Of a stretch of 64,000 nucleotides of DNA, positions 2,462 through 17,353 are shown piece after piece. Under the pieces are notes generated by a model that saw only the letters and a program-made list of their open reading frames with translations, ran no database searches and was not told the DNA's origin. The translations under genes and the position numbers were made by a program. The stretch comes from an uncultured Bacteroidota bacterium (lineage in GTDB: Bacteria; Bacteroidota; Ignavibacteria; UBA10030; UBA6906), in contig CAVOYH010000003.1 of assembly GCA_963700635.1 (NCBI GenBank), positions 928,001 through 992,000 of the forward strand, written 5' to 3'. Position 1 is the first letter of the stretch. Every line of letters begins with the position of its first letter.

Positions 2462-3294
2462 GAACGATCCTCGGCAACGAAATCCTCAAGACCTCGCTCA
2501 AATGGAGGTCCTATATTTCCTTTATTACCATCGCGGTGATCATTCCCCTGGTGGATCTTGGACTCTTTCTTGAACGCGGAGGGTGGGCGCGATCGATTAC
2601 CCGCGGCCTTTCCCAGGATTTTCTGGTGATGGGGAATATCAAGAACGCATACTTTGTGACCTATTTTCTCATGAATGCGCTCTGGATCCATATTCCCTTC
2701 CTCATCACCCTCGGTGCGGGAGATCAACTGGCAGGTGAAGCAACGGGAGGAACGTTTCGCATCCTGCTGACACGACCGGCTTCCCGTTCGTATATCCTCT
2801 TTACGAAGTATATTACCACGTTGCTGTACGCAGCCGCGCTCGTGGTCTTTATGGGGGCGCTCTCGCTCGGACTCGGGGCCGTGCTGTTCGGGACCGGTGA
2901 TCTGCTGGTTCCGGGCAGAACGTTTATCGTCCATGCGGAACATGATGTGCTCTGGCGCATGGCTATCAGCTTCGCGCTTGCAACGTGGGGTATGTGGACG
3001 GTTGCCTCGCTCGCGTTTCTCTTTTCTTCGCTTGTGGAGAACGGTATCGGCCCGATCATCGGGACGATGGCCATCATCATCGGTTCGTACATCATCGGTA
3101 ATGTTCCGGTGGATCTGTTTGCCTCGATCAAACCGTATCTCTTCACCACATATCTTGATCTGTGGGCGAAGGTCTTTGAAGATCCCGTGCCGTGGGATAC
3201 CCTGCTCCATTCAATCCTTGTCCTTGGCGCATTCAACGTTGGTTTTTACCTTGTAACTTGGTATATTTTTCTGAAGAAAGATGTTCTGAGCTGA
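2458..3294 (+). CDS. ABC-2 type transporter permease
   Basis: About 6 hydrophobic segments, GE..GGT..ILLTRPASR motif, 4-bp overlap with the ATPase gene. Confidence 0.88.
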   Translation: MRTILGNEILKTSLKWRSYISFITIAVIIPLVDLGLFLERGGWARSITRGLSQDFLVMGNIKNAYFVTYFLMNALWIHIPFLITLGAGDQLAGEATGGTFRILLTRPASRSYILFTKYITTLLYAAALVVFMGALSLGLGAVLFGTGDLLVPGRTFIVHAEHDVLWRMAISFALATWGMWTVASLAFLFSSLVENGIGPIIGTMAIIIGSYIIGNVPVDLFASIKPYLFTTYLDLWAKVFEDPVPWDTLLHSILVLGAFNVGFYLVTWYIFLKKDVLS

Positions 3295-6556: not shown

Positions 6557-6585
6557 TTGACAATGGATGCTGAGCACGGTATATT
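6557..6585 (+). promoter_or_regulatory. Sigma70-type promoter for the riboswitch-nrdJ transcript
   Basis: TTGACA (6557-6562), 17-nt spacer, TATATT (6580-6585). Confidence 0.75.
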
Positions 6586-6601
6586 GGCAGCAGTTCATTC
6601 T

Positions 6602-6777
6602 CAATGATGTATCCGGTCAAGGGAATTCCGTCAAAGCGGAAGCTGCCCCGCAACTGTATGTGACAACCGGCGTACGCGCCACTGACTCTGCGGATGGTCG
6701 GGAAGGCGCTACCGCAGTCCATGTCACGAGCCAGGAGACCTGCCGGTTTCATTGTCACGAAAACCTTCGCGGGAAGG
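6602..6777 (+). ncRNA. Cobalamin (B12) riboswitch
   Basis: Conserved elements in order: GGT-AAGGGAA, hairpin TTCCG..CGGAA, GCTGCCCCGCAACTGT, GCCACTG, GGGAAGGC, B12 box GAGCCAGGAGACCTGCC, then P13 hairpin CCTTC-GCGG-GAAGG. Confidence 0.93.
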
Positions 6778-6821
6778 GAACTGATACACACAGGTTGGCA
6801 CCCACATCACACCTGTGTACG

Positions 6822-6854
6822 CCCCTGTTTTCCCGCAGAAGAGAGGGGTTTTTT
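6822..6854 (+). terminator. Intrinsic terminator (riboswitch expression platform)
   Basis: CCCCT-G-TTTTC / CCGCA loop / GAAGA-G-AGGGG followed by T6, just upstream of the nrdJ start. Confidence 0.75.
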
Positions 6855-6873
6855 CATTTCAGGAGAGAAGCGT

Positions 6874-9399
6874 ATGGTGTTGCAGGACATGTTCGCCTTA
6901 AGAGGCAAGACGGCACGCCGCATCGGTGAAGATCGCACGGCGATGTATCAGCAACTCTATGCAGAACTCTCAGACAAAGTTGAAAACGGAACACTTCCGA
7001 GTCATCCCGACTACTTGTGCGGAAACGAACTCGCTTCCAATATCTATCGCAAAAAGTACTTCGTCAAGGATCTGGGCGGCCAGGCGGTTGAACAAAGGCC
7101 AGAAGATGTGTTTGTACGTCTCGCCTCCTTCCTCGCTTCGACGGAAAAAACCCCCGAACTCCGGACCCGCTGGGCTGAAAGCTTCTATCGTATGCTCTAT
7201 GAAGGCCGGTTCATCAGCGGCGGACGCGTGCTTGCAGGGGCCGGTGACCTGTACCGGCTCAAGACCCTGGCGAACTGTTTCGTTACCACAATCAAAGAAG
7301 ACAATATCGAGTCTATTTACCAGGCGGCATATGAATGCGCCCGGACCTACTCCTACGGCGGCGGCATCGGGGTGGATATCAGCGGACTCCGTCCGAAAGA
7401 TTCCGTGGTCCACAATGCAGCCGACAAATCTACCGGCGCTGTTTCGTTTATGGATATCTTCTCGTTGACCACCGGCCTGATCGGGCAGAGCGGACGGCGG
7501 GGAGCGCTGATGTTGACGATTGACATCAAACATCCCGACGTTCTTGACTTTGTCCGCGTTAAAAAGGTCCCGAACTGGGTCACACATCAGATTGTGGAAC
7601 AATGCCAGTGGTCCGGACGGTTTGATGATGCGCAACTACGGGAAATTGAACGGCAGGTGCGGGAAAACACGCAGGTGCGGTTTGCCAATATCAGCATCAA
7701 GGCAACCGACGAATTTATGCAGGCCGTGGATGAACAAACGCGCTACGGACCGGCCGCAATTCTGGTCTATCGAAAATTCTCCCGTCCCACGGTGTTCTCC
7801 GCGTACCAGGATCAGGACCATCATTATTCCTTTGGCATTCCCGCAAAAGACATCACCGGATACGAATTTGCCGGTGATTTTGCCACACTCGAAGGCCTGA
7901 ATAAATGGCTGGAGAAACAGGGAGGCGGCGCAGTCACGGAAGACCAGCTTGCCGACGGAAGCACCCGCGACGTCTACGGTGACGTCGTTGTGGAGCTCCC
8001 GCAGCAGAAATACGATCTGGCCGTTCGCGTTGCAGGTGATTTTATGCTGTATTTTGCCTCGGCGCAGACCGGCGAAATCCGGCGCCTGACCAAGGCCAGA
8101 GAAATCTGGGATGCCTTTATCGAAAGCAACTACCACACGGCAGAACCCGGACTCATATTCTGGACGGCGATGGCCAAGTACAGTCCGTCGAATTATGTGG
8201 GCAGGCCAATAGCCTGTACCAACCCGTGTGCGGAAGTCCCCCTGGAAGACGGCGGTGCCTGCAACCTCGGCTCCATTAATCTGAGCAGGTTTGTGGTGGA
8301 CGGGTACACGGAAAAAGCCCGGGTGGACTGGCAGGCCCTGACTGAAGTGACACACCATGCGGTGCGGTTTCTTGACAATGTGGTGCTCTGGAACGAGATT
8401 CTGAACCCCCTTGAAAAACAGCGTCGGGCTGCATCGGAGACACGGCGCCTTGGCCTCGGGGTCATGGGTATTGCGGATATGGTCAACCAGCTCGGCAAGA
8501 TGTACGATAGTGATGAAGCGGTGGAGCTGATGGAACGGGTGATGGAGACCATATGTAATGCCGCGTACCAATCGTCAGCACTCCTTGCCGCTGAAAAAGG
8601 CCCCTCCCCGATCTTTTCCTTCGAGGACTATGCGCGGTGCCCGTTCTTCCAGGAAGCGCTCAGCGATGAAACGCGGGCGCTGATACAGGAACACGGGCTG
8701 CGTAATATCGCCATCATGTCCATTGCGCCAACCGGGAGTATTTCCAATATCGTCCTGGGTTTTGCCCACCAGGGAAAAAACTATATCGGTGTGTCAGGCG
8801 GCGTCGAACCGGTCTTTGCACTGTACTACTCACGCCGATCGGAATCCTTTGGCAATCAGATCTTTCGCGTCTTCCACAGCACGGTGCAGGCGTACCTGGA
8901 GATGCACGGACTTGCGGAAGAAGCCCAGAAGAAACCGCTGGATGAATTGTTGCCGGCGCACTTCTTCCGGACAGCGCACGTTATTGCGCCGGACATGAGG
9001 GTCCAGGTCCAGGGAACATGTCAGAAGTTCGTGGATCACTCCATCTCATCAACGGTGAACCTCCCGGAGGATATCGAGCCGGAAGTGATTTCAAGAATAT
9101 ACGTGCAGGCGTGGAAGAGCGGGCTGAAGGGAATCACCGTCTATCGTGACGGAAGCAGGTATCCTATCCTCAGTGTTGACGGCAAGCACACGCCATTTCA
9201 GGAGATCAAAAACAAGAAGTATGCGCTGCGTGTACCGCAGGCGGAGGGAGAGAAACAACAGGTGCAGGAGGTTGCAGGCGAAGAGGTCATACGGATGCCG
9301 GACGGGCGGTTGACGACGGTGTATCATCTGCTGAAACGGCGCGAACAGTCCCGCGATGAGACGCCGAAGGCGACGGAAGTTATACTGAATCAGAACTGA
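6874..9399 (+). CDS. nrdJ: Class II (adenosylcobalamin-type) ribonucleotide reductase, catalytic subunit NrdJa
   Basis: LANCF, TNPCAEVPL, ACNLGSINL, IAPTGSIS, GLKGITVYRDGSR (class II-type, no class I YY pair); no ATP cone; AGGAG precedes ATG 6874 (6943 is an alternative start). Confidence 0.9.
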   Translation: MVLQDMFALRGKTARRIGEDRTAMYQQLYAELSDKVENGTLPSHPDYLCGNELASNIYRKKYFVKDLGGQAVEQRPEDVFVRLASFLASTEKTPELRTRWAESFYRMLYEGRFISGGRVLAGAGDLYRLKTLANCFVTTIKEDNIESIYQAAYECARTYSYGGGIGVDISGLRPKDSVVHNAADKSTGAVSFMDIFSLTTGLIGQSGRRGALMLTIDIKHPDVLDFVRVKKVPNWVTHQIVEQCQWSGRFDDAQLREIERQVRENTQVRFANISIKATDEFMQAVDEQTRYGPAAILVYRKFSRPTVFSAYQDQDHHYSFGIPAKDITGYEFAGDFATLEGLNKWLEKQGGGAVTEDQLADGSTRDVYGDVVVELPQQKYDLAVRVAGDFMLYFASAQTGEIRRLTKAREIWDAFIESNYHTAEPGLIFWTAMAKYSPSNYVGRPIACTNPCAEVPLEDGGACNLGSINLSRFVVDGYTEKARVDWQALTEVTHHAVRFLDNVVLWNEILNPLEKQRRAASETRRLGLGVMGIADMVNQLGKMYDSDEAVELMERVMETICNAAYQSSALLAAEKGPSPIFSFEDYARCPFFQEALSDETRALIQEHGLRNIAIMSIAPTGSISNIVLGFAHQGKNYIGVSGGVEPVFALYYSRRSESFGNQIFRVFHSTVQAYLEMHGLAEEAQKKPLDELLPAHFFRTAHVIAPDMRVQVQGTCQKFVDHSISSTVNLPEDIEPEVISRIYVQAWKSGLKGITVYRDGSRYPILSVDGKHTPFQEIKNKKYALRVPQAEGEKQQVQEVAGEEVIRMPDGRLTTVYHLLKRREQSRDETPKATEVILNQN

Positions 9400-9475
9400 C
9401 CTCCGACCGGCAGCAATCTGCCGTAACGATGCGGCGGACGTACGATAGAGCAGGAACATCTCGTAAGGATTACCG

Positions 9476-10087
9476 ATGCTGACACTTCCCACAGGTACGT
9501 ACGACATTGAAGAGATTAAACGCGAGAAAGCACTCATTCCGCGGCTGGAGGCGGGAGAGACGGTAATCGGAACGCGGCCGGATGTCACCGAGGCCCGCGT
9601 CTACCGTTTGCGGAGCGGGTTTGTTAACAATAGTGTGTTCATCACGCTGGGGTACATCCGCGAGGACGGTAAGAACCGTCCGATTGAAATCTTCATTAAC
9701 AGCAAGGACCTCACCAGAGCTGCGGAATATGCCGTCCTCACGCGGCTGATTTCGGCGATATTCCGAAAATCAACCGACCCGACATTTATTCTTGAGGAAC
9801 TCCGGGGGATCTATGATCCGAACGGCGGTTACTTCAAGGATGGTAAATATATCCATTCCTTCTACGCGGAAATCGCAAAGGTCATCGAACAGTTTTTCGA
9901 AGACATCGGAGTCACCCCTATAAAGGGCGGAGCGCAGCCGGTGAACGTGATTGTCTCCCAGGTGCCGGACGACGGCCTCAGTGCCTTGAAAATCTGTCCG
10001 AAGTGCGGCGACCGGTCGGTAAAAATCGAAAACGGCTGTCTGGCCTGTGTCAACGCAGAGTGCGGGTACAGTAAGTGTGATGATTAA
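9476..10087 (+). CDS. NrdJb-like protein: TSCPD-type domain plus C-terminal Cys-rich zinc ribbon
   Basis: RPIEIFINSKD...LTRLISAIFR..ELRGI motif and CPKC...ENGCLACVNAECGYSKC tail, normally the C-terminus of NrdJ. Confidence 0.85.
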   Translation: MLTLPTGTYDIEEIKREKALIPRLEAGETVIGTRPDVTEARVYRLRSGFVNNSVFITLGYIREDGKNRPIEIFINSKDLTRAAEYAVLTRLISAIFRKSTDPTFILEELRGIYDPNGGYFKDGKYIHSFYAEIAKVIEQFFEDIGVTPIKGGAQPVNVIVSQVPDDGLSALKICPKCGDRSVKIENGCLACVNAECGYSKCDD

Positions 10088-10198
10088 CCGGAGAGAGTGT
10101 GCGGCCCCGCCTTCGCGTTGACTTCATCTCTGAATCCTCGTATCATACATACAGCAACGGAACCTCTTTCCTTCGCGATTGTTGCTCTATGGCACAGA

Positions 10199-11227
10199 AT
10201 GAATTCCCCAATCCTTACCATATCGCTGTTCTTCCTGCTTATCGCCGTGCTGGCGTTGCTTGTCTGGCCCGGAAAAGGACTGGTTTCGCGCCTGCGCGTT
10301 GCGCGTAAGGAGAAATCCCGGTCGGTCCTTGAAGACGTGCTCAAACACGCATACGACTGCCAGTACCGATCTGTCGCTTGCACGGTCGAAAGTATTGCTG
10401 GTGTACTCCAGACGTCCATCGGAAATGCGACCCATCATGCAACACGCCTGGAGTCGATGGGATTGCTGGAGCACCACGGTCCCGCCCTGCGGCTCACCGC
10501 CGATGGCACATCGTATGCGCTTCGTGTTATCCGCATACACCGGCTCTGGGAGCGGTATCTCGCGGATGAGACCAGTGTTCGTGAAGCCGACTGGCACCGT
10601 GAGGCCGAGCGGCAGGAGCATCGACTCTCACCTGCAGATGCGGATGCGCTTGCTGCCCGGCTTTCGAACCCGCAGCTCGATCCTCACGGTGATCCAATCC
10701 CGTCCGCGACCGGCGAACTTCCTTCAATCCCGGGCGAACCTCTGTCAGTCCTTCCTGAAGGAGAATTCGGGCGCATCGTACACATTGAAGATGAGCCGCC
10801 GGAAATCTACGCCCAGCTTGCAGCGTTGGGTCTGCACCCCGGCATGCAGTTGCAGATGATCCAGAACAAACCACAACATGTGCGCTTCGAAGCGCAGGGT
10901 GAGGAGATGCTGCTGGCATCCCCCCTCGCCCGTCATGTCACCGTCGTGCTGCTTCCCGAAGAACGCCGGAATCGGGGCCCGTTCAAGACACTCACATCTA
11001 TTCAAACCGGACAGACCGCGGTCGTCACCGCCATTTCACGGGCCTGCCGCGGGCAACAACGGCGCCGGATTATGGATCTTGGCATCGTGCCCGGGACACA
11101 TATTTCGGCGGAACTGGACAGTCTGACCGGGAACCCACGAGCGTATCAGGTGCGCGGAACGCTTGTGGCCCTCCGGGAGGAACAGGCCGATCACATTTTT
11201 ATTGAACCGGTTGCAGGTCACGCATGA
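10199..11227 (+). CDS. DtxR/MntR-family metalloregulator with N-terminal TM helix and two FeoA domains
   Basis: [33 protein letters not shown]; FeoA-like LAALGLHPG and [11 protein letters not shown]...ALREEQA. Confidence 0.85.
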
Positions 11228-12051
11228 GCGACGTACCAAACGATGCCTGCGCGACATGCCCTGCGTTTAACGCCGGTCATCTCACCCGGCTGGGTATCAA
11301 CCTCGCCAACGTTGACTTTGTCATTGCTCTGGCCGGCAATCCGAATACCGGAAAGAGCACGGTGTTTAATGCCCTGACCGGACTGCGACAGCATACGGGT
11401 AACTGGCCGGGGAAGACCGTTGCACGGGCGGAAGGAGGATTCGCGTACAGAGAGAAACGATTCAAGATTGTGGATCTCCCCGGTACGTATTCGCTCCTGT
11501 CGACCAGCGCTGACGAGGAAGTAGCCCGTGATTTTATTCTCTTCGGCAAACCCGATGTCACCGTGATTATCGCGGACGCGACGCGTCTGGAGCGAAACCT
11601 CAATCTCGTCCTTCAAGTGCTCGAGATTACAGATAAAGCCGTATTGTGCGTGAATCTTATCGATGAAGCACGGCGACATAACCTGAATGTTGATGACCGC
11701 GCCCTTGCACGTGAACTGGGCATCCCTGTGGTGCTTACCGCGGCACGGCAACGCGAAGGGATTGATCTCCTTCTGAAGCAGATATTCGATGTTGCCACCG
11801 GTGCGTTTGTGTGCAAACCTCACCGGGTGCAGACAATACCACCGGCAGTCGCCAGGGCGGTAGAACGAATCACCGAGCGTGTGACCGGACTCTTTCCGGG
11901 TCTGCCCAATGCCCGTTGGGTCGCGTTACGGCTGTTGGAAGGCGACCAGCGTATGATTGATGCTGTACAGAGCGGCGAGCTGAACACACTGGTCGACGGG
12001 GCACAGGGGGTGGCGCCACGCGATCACGCGGAAGTCGATGCTGCATCCTGA
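11224..12051 (+). CDS. feoB: FeoB N-terminal GTPase domain protein
   Basis: G1 GNPNTGKS, G2 TGNWPGKT, G3 DLPGTYSL, G4 NLID. Confidence 0.92.
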
Positions 12052-12114
12052 GTCGTCGGATGTATTCTTGACGTTTCGCGCATCGGTACGCTCTGCAATT
12101 CATCATTGAATACG

Positions 12115-13551
12115 ATGACACAACCCACACAAGAATCGAGCCAGTCTCTCCTCGCCGAAGCCAACGCGCTGCGCTGGGAGATGGGGGAAGAATATCACGA
12201 CTCCCTCATGGAAGGCATCTACGAAGATGCCGCCCGCATAGCGGATCACTCCGTGACACGGGATGGCGAGAAAAAACGGCTCGACTACGACCGCACGATT
12301 GATCATCTCGTTACGAGCAAGTGGACCGGTTTCCCGTTCATGTTCCTCCTGCTGGCTATTGTCTTCTGGCTCACGGTTGAGGGAGCGAATGTCCCGTCAG
12401 CGTTACTTGCAGACTTTTTTCTGGACACACTTCATCCCCTCCTTAAATCAGCGCTGGAAGCTGTTGGTTCGCCCTGGTGGCTCACGGGGGTGTTGATTGA
12501 TGGCGCCTATCTGGCCGGAGCATGGGTCGTCAGCGTAATGCTTCCCCCCATGGCGATCTTCTTCCCGGTCTTTACCCTGCTCGAAGATTTTGGCTATCTG
12601 CCGCGCGTTGCGTTTAATATGGATGCGCTCTATCGCCGGGCGGGCGCGCACGGGCGGCAGGCCTTGACGATGACGATGGGATTCGGTTGTAACGCCGCCG
12701 GTGTTGTGGCCACACGGATAATCGACAGTCCGCGCGAGCGGCTGATCGCCATCATTACCAACAACTTCTCGTTGTGTAACGGAAGATGGCCGACCCAGAT
12801 CCTCATTGCTTCGATTTTTATCAGCGCCCTTGTGCCTCCCCATCTTGCCGGCATCGTTGCCGCGGGCGGAGTGGTTTTTGTCGCGGTGCTTGGGGTTGTG
12901 CTGAGTCTGGTGGTGTCGTGGTTCCTTTCCCGATCTGTGCTGCGGGGCGAAGCATCTGCCTTCAGTCTGGAGCTTCCGCCGTATCGTCCGCCCCGTCTTT
13001 TGCAGACACTGTACACATCGTTAATAGATCGTACAATCTTTGTGCTCTGGCGTGCGGTGGTGTTTGCCGTCCCCGCCGGTATGGTGATCTGGATTGTCGG
13101 GAATGTGACAATCGGTGACGTGACGGTTGCCGAACATTTTATTCGCTGGTCCAATCCGTTCGGCCTGCTGCTCGGGCTCAATGGCGTCATTCTTCTCGCG
13201 TACATTATTGCCATCCCCGCGAATGAAATTGTGATTCCGACCGTGTTGATGCTTACCGTGCTCACGTCGGCCATACCCGGTATCGGGGCCGGTGCGGGGG
13301 TGATGTTTGAGACTGATTCCGCCATTGCGGCGGCCGAGATTCTGCGGGCAGGGGGATGGACGACGTTGACCGGAATATCTCTGATGATCTTCAGTCTGCT
13401 TCACAATCCCTGCTCCACCACTATTTTTACGATCTACAAAGAAACAGGGAGTATAAAGTGGACGGTTCTTGCGACCCTGCTGCCGCTGGTGATGGGATTT
13501 GTCGCATGCTTCCTCCTGGCGCAGGGCTGGAGGGTGTTTTCCGGTGGTTAA
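12115..13551 (+). CDS. feoB: FeoB membrane (gate) domain protein
   Basis: LEDFGYLPRVAF, MGFGCNA, LELPPYRPP, NPCSTT; multiple TM segments. Confidence 0.92.
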   Translation: MTQPTQESSQSLLAEANALRWEMGEEYHDSLMEGIYEDAARIADHSVTRDGEKKRLDYDRTIDHLVTSKWTGFPFMFLLLAIVFWLTVEGANVPSALLADFFLDTLHPLLKSALEAVGSPWWLTGVLIDGAYLAGAWVVSVMLPPMAIFFPVFTLLEDFGYLPRVAFNMDALYRRAGAHGRQALTMTMGFGCNAAGVVATRIIDSPRERLIAIITNNFSLCNGRWPTQILIASIFISALVPPHLAGIVAAGGVVFVAVLGVVLSLVVSWFLSRSVLRGEASAFSLELPPYRPPRLLQTLYTSLIDRTIFVLWRAVVFAVPAGMVIWIVGNVTIGDVTVAEHFIRWSNPFGLLLGLNGVILLAYIIAIPANEIVIPTVLMLTVLTSAIPGIGAGAGVMFETDSAIAAAEILRAGGWTTLTGISLMIFSLLHNPCSTTIFTIYKETGSIKWTVLATLLPLVMGFVACFLLAQGWRVFSGG

Positions 13552-13774
13552 TCATCGGGCATAACCGTGCTCAGGGTAACCCTCCGCGCCACCCGCTGAT
13601 TTTCCCACTTTTTCCCTTTTCATTCTCAAATATTGGAATTTTAGGGCTTCTTGGCCCCCACTTTTGCGGAATTGGGCGTTTATTCTGGCATGCTATTGGC
13701 AGGGTTGCTATGGACTGCTCCTCTTAGAACATCCGGCATCTTTTTTTTCACCTCGAAACTGTCAAGGAATAACG

Positions 13775-16700
13775 ATGAAACGAGAAAAAGTCACGATTGA
13801 CGGCAATGAAGCGGCAGCATATGTAGCCCACAAGCTGAACGAGGTTATTGCCATCTATCCCATCACGCCATCCTCCAACATGGGCGAATGGGCGGATGAA
13901 TGGTCATCCATGGGACGCCAGAATCTGTGGGGGACGGTTCCTTCCGTTACGGAAATGCAAAGTGAAGGTGGAGCGGCTGGCGCGGTGCATGGTGCGCTCC
14001 AGACCGGAGCCCTTTCAACGACATTTACGGCATCACAGGGACTTCTCCTGATGATACCGAACATGTTCAAAATCGCAGGCGAACTCACTTCTACAGTGTT
14101 CCATGTTTCCGCCCGTTCGGTGGCCGCAAACGCGCTATCCATCTTCGGTGACCACAGCGATGTGATGGCCACCCGTACCACCGGGTTCGGGTTGCTGGCA
14201 TCGAACAGCATCCAGGAAATCATGGACTTTGCGCTTATCGCTCAGGCTGCCACACTCGAATCGCGTGTTCCCTTTATTCACTTCTTTGATGGTTTCCGTA
14301 GTTCACACGAGGTACAGAAAATTGAACAGCTGGCCGATGAAGACATGCGCGCGCTGGTGAACGACGACCTGGTGATTGCACACCGGCAACGGGGTCTCTC
14401 GCCTGACCACCCGGTCATGCGCGGGACGGCACAGAATCCCGATGTCTTTTTCCAGGGGCGTGAAACATGTAATCCGTATTACCTTGCCTGTCCGGACATT
14501 GTCCAGAAGGTGATGGACAAGTTTGCGAAGGTGGTTGGACGGGGATACAAGCTCTTTGAGTATGCGGGATCGCCGACGGCGGACCGGGTGATGGTGATCA
14601 TGGGGTCCGGCGCCGAAACCGCACAGGAAACAATCGACTTTCTGAACAAGGACGGTGCAAACCTGGGCCTCCTGAAAGTCCGTCTCTATCGCCCCTTCTC
14701 GGTTAAACATTTCCTCGCTGCCCTGCCGCCGAGCGTCAAGCACATCGCCGTGCTCGACCGGACAAAAGAGCCCGGCGCACTTGGCGAGCCGATGTATCTC
14801 GACATCATCGGTGCGTTGAATGAGGGGCTGATGGATGGTACTGCACCGGTAAAAACCATGCCCCGCGTGATTGGCGGACGTTACGGCCTTTCGTCAAAGG
14901 AATTCACCCCGGCCATGGTGAAGGGCGTGTTCGAAGAGCTTGCAAAACCAAAGCCCAAAAATCACTTTACGGTCGGCATCGTTGATGATGTCACACACAC
15001 CAGCCTGGACTATGATCCGTCGTTCTCCACGGAAGCTGACGACGTATTCCGGGGCCTGTTTTACGGTCTCGGCGCTGATGGTACGGTTGGCGCAAACAAG
15101 AACTCCATCAAGATCATCGGCGAAGACACGGAGTTCTATGCGCAGGGATATTTTGTATACGACTCCAAGAAGTCAGGCTCGACGACGACGTCCCATCTGC
15201 GCTTTGGCCCGCGTCCGATCCGTTCGACTTACCTTATCAGCACGGCAAAATTTGTCGCATGCCATCAGTGGTTCTTCCTGGAGAAATTTGATGTCCTGAA
15301 GACCGCGCTTCCCGGCAGCACATTCCTCCTGAACAGCATGTATGGTCCCACAGAAGTATGGGAGCATCTGCCAAAACACGTTCAGGAGCAGCTGATTCGC
15401 AAGAAGATCAAGTTCTTTGTGATAGATGCGTATAAAGTCGCCACAGAGACGGGAATGGGCGGCCGCGTGAACACCATCATGCAGACCTGTTTCTTTGCGA
15501 TTTCGGGCGTGTTAGCGCGTGACGCGGCCATTGAGGCGATCAAGAATTCGATCAAAAAGACCTACGGACGTAAAGGGGATGAGATCGTCAAACAGAACTT
15601 CGATGCGGTGGATCAGACCATAGCAAATCTGCATGAAGTCAAGGTTCCGGCAAAGGTCACCAGCACCATTGCCATGCCGCCGGTGGTATCGGAGACGGCT
15701 CCGGATTTTGTCAGGAACGTGACCGCGCAGATCATTGCCGGTTTAGGGGACAGTCTCCCGGTCAGCGCGATGCCGGTGGATGGAACATTTCCGACCGGAA
15801 CAACACAGTGGGAAAAACGGAATATAGCGCTTGAGATCCCGGTCTGGGACACGGTGACCTGTATCCAGTGCAACAAGTGCGCGATGGTGTGTCCTCATGC
15901 CGCCATCCGCACAAAGGTATACGATCCGAAGGATCTTGTCGGTGCGCCGGCGACATTCAAATCCGCGGACTACCGCGGTCCCGAATACAAGGGGATGAAA
16001 TACACGGTCCAGGTGGCGCCCGAGGATTGTACGGGCTGCGAGTTGTGCGTGGATGTGTGTCCGGCGAAGAACAAATCTGAAGTGCGGTTTAAAGCCATCA
16101 ATATGGCACCGCAGCCACCGATCCGCGAGACAGAAAGGTCCAACTATGACTTCTTCCTGAACCTCGGCGAAATCGACCGCCGTCAGGTAAAAATGGATTC
16201 GGTGAAGGGATCACAGTTCCTCGAGCCGTTATTCGAGTATTCCGGTGCATGCTCGGGTTGCGGCGAGACCCCGTATGTAAAACTGGTAAGCCAGCTGTTT
16301 GGTGATCGCACGCTTGTTGCAAACGCGACAGGATGTTCATCGATTTATGGCGGCAACCTTCCCACGACGCCGTGGGCGAAGAACAAGGATGGCCGCGGTC
16401 CTGCCTGGTCAAACTCTCTGTTCGAAGACAATGCCGAATTCGGCATGGGCATGCGGCTGACGATTGACAAGCATACCGAAATGGCCCTCGAACTGGTGCA
16501 ATTACTCGCATCCCAGATCGGTGACGACCTGGCATCGGCCCTGATCCATGCACATCAGGCCGATGAAGCGGGGATTCACGAACAGCGCCAGCGTGTTGCG
16601 GCGCTCAAAAAGAAACTCGCCACCATCTCATCGCCGGAAGCGCGGAACCTCCTTTCTCTCGCAGATAATCTTGTGAAAAGGAGCGTCTGGATCATGGGAG

Positions 16701-17353
16701 GTGATGGGTGGGCCTACGACATCGGCTTCGGCGGATTGGATCACGTGCTCGCCTCGGGCCGCAATGTGAATATTCTTGTGCTCGACACGGAAGTCTACTC
16801 CAACACCGGCGGACAGATGTCAAAATCCACGCCGAGGTCTGCAGTTGCGAAGTTTGCTGCAGGCGGAAAGCCCCTTGCCAAAAAAGACCTCGGCCGCATC
16901 GCGATGACCTATGGTGGCGTATACGTGGCCCAGGTGGCGATGGGACAAAACGATCTGCAAACGATCCGGGCATTTCTTGAAGCCGATGCACACGACGGAC
17001 CGTCGCTCATTCTGGCGTACAGCCATTGTATTGCACACGGTATCGACATGGGAAGGGGGATGGTAAACCAGAAAGCGGCGGTGGAAAGCGGTCACTGGCC
17101 GCTCTATCGGTTTAACCCGCTCCTGGCAAGCGAAGGGAAGAATCCCCTGAAGCTCGACTCGAAGCCGCCGAAGATCCGTTTCGAAGATTACGCATACCTT
17201 GAAACCCGGTATAAGATGCTCACCAAGAGCAAGCCGGAAGAGGCGAAAAGGCTTATGGCGCTGGCCGAAGAAGATGTCAAGACCCGCTGGAAGTGGTTTG
17301 AACAGGCGGCAAAGGAATGGGAAAGCAACACCCCCAAACCCGGGTCTAACTAA
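13775..17353 (+). CDS. nifJ: Pyruvate:ferredoxin/flavodoxin oxidoreductase
   Basis: [16 protein letters not shown], two ferredoxin motifs ([24 protein letters not shown]), [18 protein letters not shown]. Confidence 0.97.

Follow-up and report, generated by a model that had tools for sequence, protein, structure and literature searches.

A cobalamin riboswitch upstream of a split class II ribonucleotide reductase operon in an uncultured Bacteroidota bacterium

Introduction

The nrdJa-nrdJb operon of an uncultured Bacteroidota bacterium (assembly GCA_963700635.1, contig CAVOYH010000003.1) encodes a split class II ribonucleotide reductase (RNR) and is preceded by a cobalamin riboswitch with its own promoter and an intrinsic terminator. 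We analysed this locus within a 64-kb stretch of the contig (positions 928,001 to 992,000), which we call the window and whose numbering is used for all coordinates; leaders are labelled L### and genomes G###, G000 being the window's own genome. Repression of B12-independent isozymes is the paradigm for cobalamin riboswitches (PMC545781, PMC3766115), and a preliminary description of the locus, made from the sequence alone, had pointed out that a B12-repressed class II enzyme clashes with this rule. Our analysis finds the clash to be real, and favours an explanation in which the enzyme and the uptake of its cofactor are raised together when cobalamin is scarce.

Results

A complete riboswitch cassette precedes nrdJa

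The leader opens with a sigma-70-like promoter, TTGACA-17-TATATT (6557-6585, + strand), with 11 of 12 consensus matches. A promoter scan alone discriminates weakly in this region (4 promoter-like matches versus 2.3 +/- 1.7 in shuffles); the -35 and -10 hexamers are unchanged in all seven aligned orthologous leaders, and promoters of the same type precede the paralogous btuB leaders described below. Downstream, a covariance-model search with Rfam identifies a full-length cobalamin riboswitch aptamer at 6597-6761 (+), covering model positions 1-189 of 189 of RF00174 with a score of 84.3 bits (gathering score 31.5, E = 2.6e-19). The aptamer was recovered again in a genome-wide search, and RF00174 is the sole Rfam family above threshold across the window. 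The element is thus a genuine riboswitch, as had been proposed, and the promoter, aptamer, P13 hairpin, L5/L13 complement, terminator and TTCCCGC segment all lie where the preliminary description had placed them.

The P13 hairpin, CCTTC-GCGG-GAAGG (6764-6777, +), follows the aptamer, and its five pairs are invariant in 12 of 12 nrdJ and btuB leaders. Its loop together with the first closing base forms L13 (GCGGG, 6769-6773), which is complementary to the L5 loop bases CCCGC (6647-6651, +); these are the predicted kissing-loop partner of L13 and are invariant in seven of seven leaders. Folding places a second hairpin, HP2 (6788-6818, +), as a spacer stem between P13 and an intrinsic terminator at 6821-6855 (+), which consists of a hairpin (6821-6849) and a T run that extends to 6855. 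A simple terminator scan did not list the terminator at 6821-6855, probably owing to its bulged stem. The inner 5' half and loop of the terminator, TTTTCCCGCAGAAGA (6828-6842, +), is the antiterminator strand predicted by a folding snapshot, and TTCCCGC (6830-6836) falls within the terminator hairpin. A ribosome-binding site, GGAG (6862-6865, +), lies 8 nt before the ATG at 6874; the sequence CAGGAG is conserved in six of seven aligned leaders, the seventh, from G001, having its own GAGGAG farther downstream instead.

A consensus fold of 12 leaders (6 nrdJ and 6 btuB) yields P13, HP2 and the terminator, with compensatory changes at 9 of its 22 pairs. Five of these fall among the six consensus pairs of HP2 and four among the 11 consensus pairs of the terminator. 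In addition, the aptamer core, P13 and terminator are intact in all seven genus-level leaders despite a mean column identity of 70%. These elements together make up a regulatory cassette of about 300 nt, in which the promoter is followed by an aptamer of the putative AdoCbl (adenosylcobalamin) type, P13, the spacer hairpin HP2 and the intrinsic terminator.

The operon encodes a split class II enzyme

The first gene of the operon, nrdJa (6874-9399, +), encodes the 841-aa catalytic subunit of the RNR and contains the RNR barrel and all-alpha domains. Against the NrdJ equivalog model TIGR02504 (NrdJ_Z), NrdJa reaches 486.8 bits and exceeds the cut-off of 399.95; against the class I model TIGR02506 it reaches 256.2 bits, under the cut-off of 341.05. 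Its best solved relative is Thermotoga maritima NrdJ (E = 3.1e-72), compared with 5.2e-35 for the best class I chain, and its motifs ANCF, TNPCAE, ACNLGS and GITVYRDGS align with those of this B12-dependent enzyme (1xje). On strand beta-J, NrdJa has a single Tyr where class I enzymes have a YY dyad. The space at beta-J accommodates the adenosyl group in class II enzymes, and the YY dyad of class I enzymes serves radical transfer (bioRxiv 10.1101/2022.04.23.489257).

The second gene, nrdJb (9476-10087, +), encodes a 203-aa protein with a TSCPD domain, which corresponds to a detached cysteine-rich C-terminal domain. NrdJb aligns to residues 622-788 of a fused NrdJ from the same genome (29% identity, E = 2e-14), and the alignment takes in the terminal CxxC...CxxC...CGxSKC cysteines. 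At all 11 orthologous loci tested, nrdJb follows nrdJa. NrdJa is 38-39% identical to its fused paralogues. Relative to them the split enzyme has two insertions, one of about 30 residues near 233-262 and one of about 95 near 286-377, and a tail of 75 residues that is likewise missing from the fused form. By every sequence test run, the operon is made up of two genes, nrdJa and nrdJb, for a split class II RNR, in agreement with the class II hallmarks, the missing YY dyad and the separate NrdJb partner listed in the preliminary description.

The genome reads as that of a corrinoid auxotroph

The window's genome is 4.2 Mb in size, with an estimated completeness of 97% and contamination of 6.7%. 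The RNR barrel model PF02867 finds three genes in it, nrdJa and two fused nrdJ genes of about 770-800 residues, and all three are NrdJ-type. Class III NrdD (PF13597), the ferritin-like class I small subunit (PF00268) and the regulator NrdR (TIGR00244) were not found in this 97%-complete genome, and neither were the corrinoid synthesis markers CbiC (PF02570) and CobS (PF02654). A glycyl-radical activase or another radical-generating partner was found neither near nrdJa nor elsewhere in the genome. The earlier observation that no nrdB or nrdG lies nearby thus extends to the whole genome, and the inventory of other RNRs that it had called for amounts to the two fused NrdJ genes, with no class I or class III enzyme found. 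Given that no B12-free RNR was found, the riboswitch cannot be choosing one.

A PduO-type adenosyltransferase is encoded, as are ten loci with B12-binding domains. At least two RF00174 matches are present, one before nrdJa and one before a gene for a btuB-like TonB receptor; this count is a lower bound, 150 of 341 candidates having been scored. From its gene content, the organism reads as a corrinoid auxotroph that imports B12 and adenosylates it, and in which all RNRs are class II.

The two fused nrdJ copies lie on G000:C6 (L001, 1030-3504, +) and on G000:C3 near 1.675 Mb (L002, 892-3300, -). Each adjoins genes for a TlpA-like thioredoxin-fold protein and a long-chain acyl-CoA synthetase-like protein, in mirrored order. 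The paired loci stem either from segmental duplication or from the binning of a second strain, the contamination estimate being 6.7%.

btuB paralogy and folding point to an OFF-type switch

The nrdJa leader aligns with the leader of the btuB-like gene in the same genome over 305 positions, of which 223 (73%) match; the alignment runs from the promoter through the aptamer, P13 (identical in both) and HP2 to the terminator. The gene behind the btuB-like leader encodes Plug and TonB-barrel domains, and the same btuB-type leader is present in all five other genomes of the genus. Judged by this alignment, the nrdJa leader is a paralogue of the genome's btuB-like leader, which supports OFF logic.

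Folding leads to the same direction. In a snapshot of the transcript as it stands just before the 3' strand of the terminator is made, P13 is predicted to be opened and paired to the inner 5' half of the terminator, so that the duplex encloses HP2 (window, L008, L009, L048 and L010). This rearrangement is predicted in all five nrdJ leaders of this type for which the analysis was valid, and in six of six btuB leaders. A ligand-stabilised P13 would block the antiterminator rearrangement, which is OFF logic, and we see no overlap between P13, the ligand-stabilised element, and the strands of the terminator, as an ON reading would need. The nrdJ leader of G001 has a terminator without a complement to P13; its snapshot predicts an alternative in which the 3' strand of P1 pairs with the 5' strand of HP2, and the 3' strand of HP2 with the 5' strand of the terminator. 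As modelled, this alternative is a classical P1-controlled OFF design. The expression platform thus reads as the terminator (OFF) type put forward in the preliminary description, with which both the folding snapshots and the btuB paralogy agree, and we infer a ligand response in that direction.

The riboswitch is polymorphic among nrdJa orthologues

Among 41 related genomes, full-length NrdJa orthologues (73-90% identity) occur in all six genus genomes (G000-G005) and in G022 and G015, the copy in G004 being truncated and split between two frames. The remaining family members have a fused NrdJ alone, at about 40-45% identity. A class-wide sample contains an orthologue at E <= 1e-150 in 5 of 401 genomes, all within this family. 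Beyond the class, the closest homologues come from Calditrichota and related lineages (61-66% identity among the best 120 of 6048); no Pseudomonas sequence is among these 120, which stop at 61% identity. In the G004 contig itself (L014, G004:C18), the match to nrdJa is divided over two frames (1278-2753 and 2750-3181) and is cut off by the end of the contig; the cause is a frameshift or an assembly error. The metagenome contigs L044 and L045, whose leader is identical to L014, carry an intact 843-aa open reading frame (ORF).

RF00174 is found upstream of nrdJa in 8 of 14 distinct orthologous leaders (window, L008, L009, L010, L011, L013, L043 and L048), and the leaders without it are L012, L014 (identical to L044 and L045), L041 (identical to L047), L042 (identical to L049), L046 and L080. 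The expectation that the clade would carry the riboswitch consistently is thus not borne out. Synteny at the locus is kept, in the order of a major facilitator superfamily gene, a lolA-like gene, nrdJa, nrdJb, dtxR/feoA and feoB, and in the G004-type leader without a riboswitch only about 35 nt separate the stop codon of the lolA-like gene from the start of nrdJa. With the synteny conserved around either the cassette or the ~35-nt gap, the cassette has the character of a clean ~290-nt indel. The two genus-level NrdJa sequences without a riboswitch group together in the protein tree (support 97/99), nested among riboswitch-bearing ones, a topology that fits a single loss. The genus-level nrdJ aptamers group with the genus-level btuB aptamers, apart from the btuB aptamer of G001, and this grouping fits an origin of the nrdJ cassette by duplication of a btuB leader.

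The nrdJ aptamer of G015 shares no more than 50-54% identity with any of the other aptamers compared, and the NrdJa of this genome groups with those of the riboswitch-less G041 and G042 (support 93/99). Judging from these comparisons, the G015 riboswitch is probably a second, independent recruitment. Independent recruitment of a different aptamer would point to selection and not accident, and the comparative evidence as a whole suggests that the pairing of nrdJ and riboswitch is selected, yet dispensable.

The RNR complement also differs among the relatives. G001, with an assembly 100% complete in 20 contigs, has the riboswitch-controlled gene as its sole PF02867 match, and PF13597 was not found there. 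In G041, the orthologue is the sole PF02867 (class I/II RNR) match and has no riboswitch; class III was not searched there. The riboswitch-bearing genomes G000, G002, G003, G005 and G015 also carry a fused NrdJ, only 38-45% identical to the split enzyme, and a scan of seven fused-nrdJ loci found a riboswitch at none of them. Nor do the orthologues of the split enzyme in G004, G022 and G338 carry one, be it with or without a fused NrdJ alongside.

Two further observations concern btuB-type leaders. The btuB-type riboswitch of G001 (L058, G001:C6:289639-289832) belongs to a different aptamer lineage, 62-68% identical to those of the rest of the genus; its terminator resembles the nrdJ terminator of the window, including a P13-complementary TTTCCGC. 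In the order-level relative G032 (G032:C3; L073, L032), a cobalamin riboswitch precedes a TonB-dependent receptor gene whose 3' end falls in a gap of about 370 nt, and a third NrdJ type (Ribonuc_red_2_N, barrel and TSCPD, 926 aa) is encoded on the same strand, starting about 900 nt past the covered part of the receptor gene. This arrangement may be another btuB-nrdJ linkage.

Discussion

Our analysis leads us to favour, with modest confidence, the view that nrdJa-nrdJb encodes an AdoCbl-dependent RNR that is repressed by AdoCbl and raised together with B12 uptake under cofactor scarcity. In the proposed mechanism, bound cobalamin would promote a kissing loop between L5 and L13 that locks P13, the terminator would fold, and transcription would end before the genes (OFF). 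Without ligand, P13 would open and pair with the inner 5' half of the terminator, giving an antiterminator that encloses HP2 and lets the polymerase read through. In an auxotroph, nrdJa-nrdJb and btuB would then form a two-member response to B12 scarcity, with more transporter and more apoenzyme as AdoCbl falls, and both throttled when AdoCbl is plentiful. The raised apoenzyme would keep up holoenzyme flux for an essential client that competes with the ten other loci encoding B12-binding domains, either as dosage compensation or as cofactor capture against other B12 enzymes. Of the explanations offered in the preliminary description, over-production at cofactor scarcity fits best, given that no corrinoid synthesis markers were found, that only class II RNRs are present, and that the same cassette precedes the gene for the btuB-like receptor. 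The other part of that proposal, an NrdJ-derived enzyme that makes its radical without AdoCbl, is not supported, the split enzyme being the sole RNR found in G001 and the sole class I/II RNR in G041, keeping its class II motifs and having no alternative radical partner that was found.

Several observations weigh against the scarcity-response explanation. P13 and L5 never vary among the leaders compared, so that there is zero covariation for or against the kissing loop. Whenever a full-length leader is folded, the state with three hairpins and a formed terminator has the lowest energy, by about 5-7 kcal/mol, which means that control must be kinetic; a purely thermodynamic switch was rejected, forcing CGGGAA to pair downstream costing 2.5-7.7 kcal/mol relative to the terminator state. 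Taken as a bare duplex, the pairing of P13 with the terminator does not stand out from chance: for each of the leaders L009, L010 and L048, about 509-535 of 1000 mononucleotide shuffles reach the observed energy. What supports this pairing is the folding snapshots and the parallel btuB leaders, not the duplex-energy statistic. Six of the 14 distinct leaders have no riboswitch, including those of close relatives at 88% protein identity, and B12 control is dispensable to that extent. The G015 aptamer lies about 360 nt upstream of its gene, on a platform without a recognisable terminator. Finally, under the textbook rule, a B12-repressed RNR that accompanies an unregulated NrdJ would be taken for B12-independent, and the AdoCbl dependence of the split NrdJ clade is itself predicted from homology. 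The NrdJ family model and motifs, the finding of no alternative radical partner and the status as sole RNR found in G001 and sole PF02867 match in G041 argue for this dependence.

The last of these points bears on a rival explanation that would bring the locus back under the rule. If the enzyme were a B12-independent descendant of NrdJ that makes its radical without AdoCbl, it would be a classical B12-repressed back-up, matching the known use of cobalamin riboswitches to repress alternatives to B12 enzymes (PMC545781, PMC3766115); the genome does have a separate fused NrdJ without a riboswitch, and an auxotroph would gain from a back-up. We consider this very improbable. NrdJa scores above the cut-off of the NrdJ equivalog model and shares the class II motif on strand beta-J with the T. 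maritima enzyme, and neither a ferritin-like subunit nor a glycyl-radical activase or other partner was found nearby or in the genome. In G001, moreover, the sole RNR found sits under an OFF-type riboswitch, and B12 would shut it off; a B12-independent sole RNR that is switched off by B12 would be self-defeating, whereas a B12-dependent one trimmed at plenty would not. The clade is also widespread (65% identity in Caldithrix) and mostly without a riboswitch. It is accordingly hard to credit that the split NrdJa and NrdJb here, in Calditrichota and in related lineages have lost AdoCbl dependence and that the riboswitch is textbook after all. Were this true, an AdoCbl-free split NrdJ would be a new RNR class hidden inside 'NrdJ'. 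The opposite solution keeps the enzyme B12-dependent and reverses the switch. An ON switch, with ligand promoting read-through so that the enzyme is made only when cofactor is available, has an intuitive logic for a cofactor-dependent enzyme; the terminator is the ground state with or without constraints, and sequence alone cannot prove direction. We nevertheless give an ON switch little credence, as the ligand-stabilised P13 does not overlap the terminator strands and the opened P13 is itself the terminator's competitor, and the same three-hairpin platform, 73% identical, serves the btuB leader, where only B12 repression makes sense.

Two other explanations retain the OFF direction and locate the meaning of the riboswitch elsewhere. 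Isozyme specialisation would make the split enzyme B12-dependent but tuned to scarcity, through a higher affinity for AdoCbl or a tolerance of other cobamides; the fused NrdJ would take over once the preferred cofactor abounds, the riboswitch swapping one for the other. The coexistence of both forms in five riboswitch-bearing genomes, the riboswitch-free fused-nrdJ loci, and the insertions and tail missing from the fused form all speak for such a division of labour. It is unlikely all the same, given that the split enzyme is the sole RNR found in G001 and the sole class I/II RNR in G041, there without a riboswitch. This status marks it as a competent housekeeping RNR and not only a scarcity back-up. 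The G004, G022 and G338 orthologues, in addition, lack the riboswitch whether or not a fused NrdJ coexists. The remaining possibility, which we regard as decidedly unlikely, is regulatory hitch-hiking, in which a copy of the btuB leader before nrdJa would have been kept mainly for its strong promoter and the B12 response tolerated at little adaptive value. A clean indel in conserved synteny that some near relatives have and others do not (present in 8 of 14 distinct leaders) is what hitch-hiking would leave behind, and the ~35-nt lolA-nrdJa gap of the G004-type leader implies that nrdJa there depends on upstream transcription. Hitch-hiking fits poorly with the second, unrelated aptamer before the G015 orthologue, the aptamer core, P13 and terminator that stay intact in seven of seven otherwise divergent genus-level leaders, or the G001 leader, which rebuilt a different antiterminator instead of losing the switch.

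The locus combines a known RNA class with a known enzyme class in an unreported pairing that has an unusual regulatory logic; in the open full-text literature, we came across no description of an nrdJ gene with a cobalamin riboswitch directly in front of it, subscription literature not having been searched. The riboswitches of nrdAB, nrdDG and metE belong to the same RNA family, likewise include RNR operons (nrdAB and nrdDG) and have the direction that is predicted here, B12 repression. Unlike in those cases, the enzyme under control here belongs to class II itself, and no B12-independent RNR that could take its place was found. In Cutibacterium acnes, nrdAB and nrdDG carry a cobalamin riboswitch and nrdRJ does not (PMC3848588). 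A survey of 255 genomes reported 535 cobalamin sites in 197 genomes, and the four categories into which its excerpted text sorts them include no B12-dependent enzymes (PMC3766115); two supplementary tables of this survey name nrdJ 0 times, nrdA 11 times and nrdD 24 times. As a possible source on activating cobalamin riboswitches, PMC9600662 was set aside, since 'activat' turns up in its reference list alone and nrdJ nowhere. The NrdJa and NrdJb of Pseudomonas aeruginosa resemble the enzyme described here in gene layout, the catalytic subunit and the cysteine-rich domain likewise being encoded by adjacent separate genes (PMC5704485), the layout of the known NrdJa+b subclass. The class II activity of that organism is described as acting 'independently of B12-riboswitch regulation', and the excerpted text of the same source mentions no riboswitch for its nrdJ genes, unlike nrdJa here (PMC8123684).

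A close counterpart of the cassette is the btuB-type OFF riboswitch of its own genome, with which it shares the promoter type, the identical P13, the P13-HP2-terminator layout and 73% identity; unlike btuB, the nrdJ cassette drives a gene for a cofactor-using enzyme and not for a transporter. In Escherichia coli, control of btuB is mainly translational, whereas the platform before nrdJa is an intrinsic terminator. The AdoCbl riboswitch RNAs EutX and Rli55 also tie a cobalamin riboswitch to a B12-dependent enzyme; they control the B12-dependent ethanolamine operon in trans with B12-ON logic, whereas the nrdJa element is cis-acting and reads as B12-OFF.

Cobalamin riboswitches have been taken to control B12 synthesis, B12 uptake, cobalt uptake and B12-independent substitutes (PMC3766115). 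Here the controlled gene is that of a predicted B12-dependent enzyme, in a host whose DNA synthesis reads as wholly reliant on scavenged B12. If both the OFF direction and the AdoCbl dependence are true, the riboswitch would buffer holoenzyme activity by raising apoenzyme and transporter together at scarcity. This would also urge caution in annotation, as the presence of a B12 riboswitch would be no safe ground for calling an enzyme B12-independent. The presence/absence polymorphism and the probable second recruitment provide ready natural comparisons.

Neighbouring genes and minor observations

Downstream of nrdJb, the window encodes a DtxR/MntR-type repressor fused to two FeoA domains, and behind this gene FeoB is split into a GTPase gene and a membrane gene (10097-13551, +). 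The true start of the DtxR-type gene is probably near 10265, as relatives align only from residue 57, and a promoter-like site lies at 10118-10146. Given this site and the distance of about 175 nt beyond nrdJb, the iron/manganese link through dtxR/feoA-feoB was considered and not counted in the operon. The synteny with dtxR/feoA-feoB is restricted to the genus and near relatives, and is absent downstream in G015, G041 and G042. The riboswitch-less leader L042 contains a weak match to RT-6 RNA (RF03027) at 8107-8184 (-), at 31.3 bits under a gathering score of 46.7 (E = 0.0028). Directly behind the feoB genes of the window lies a 1229-aa ORF (13664-17353, +).

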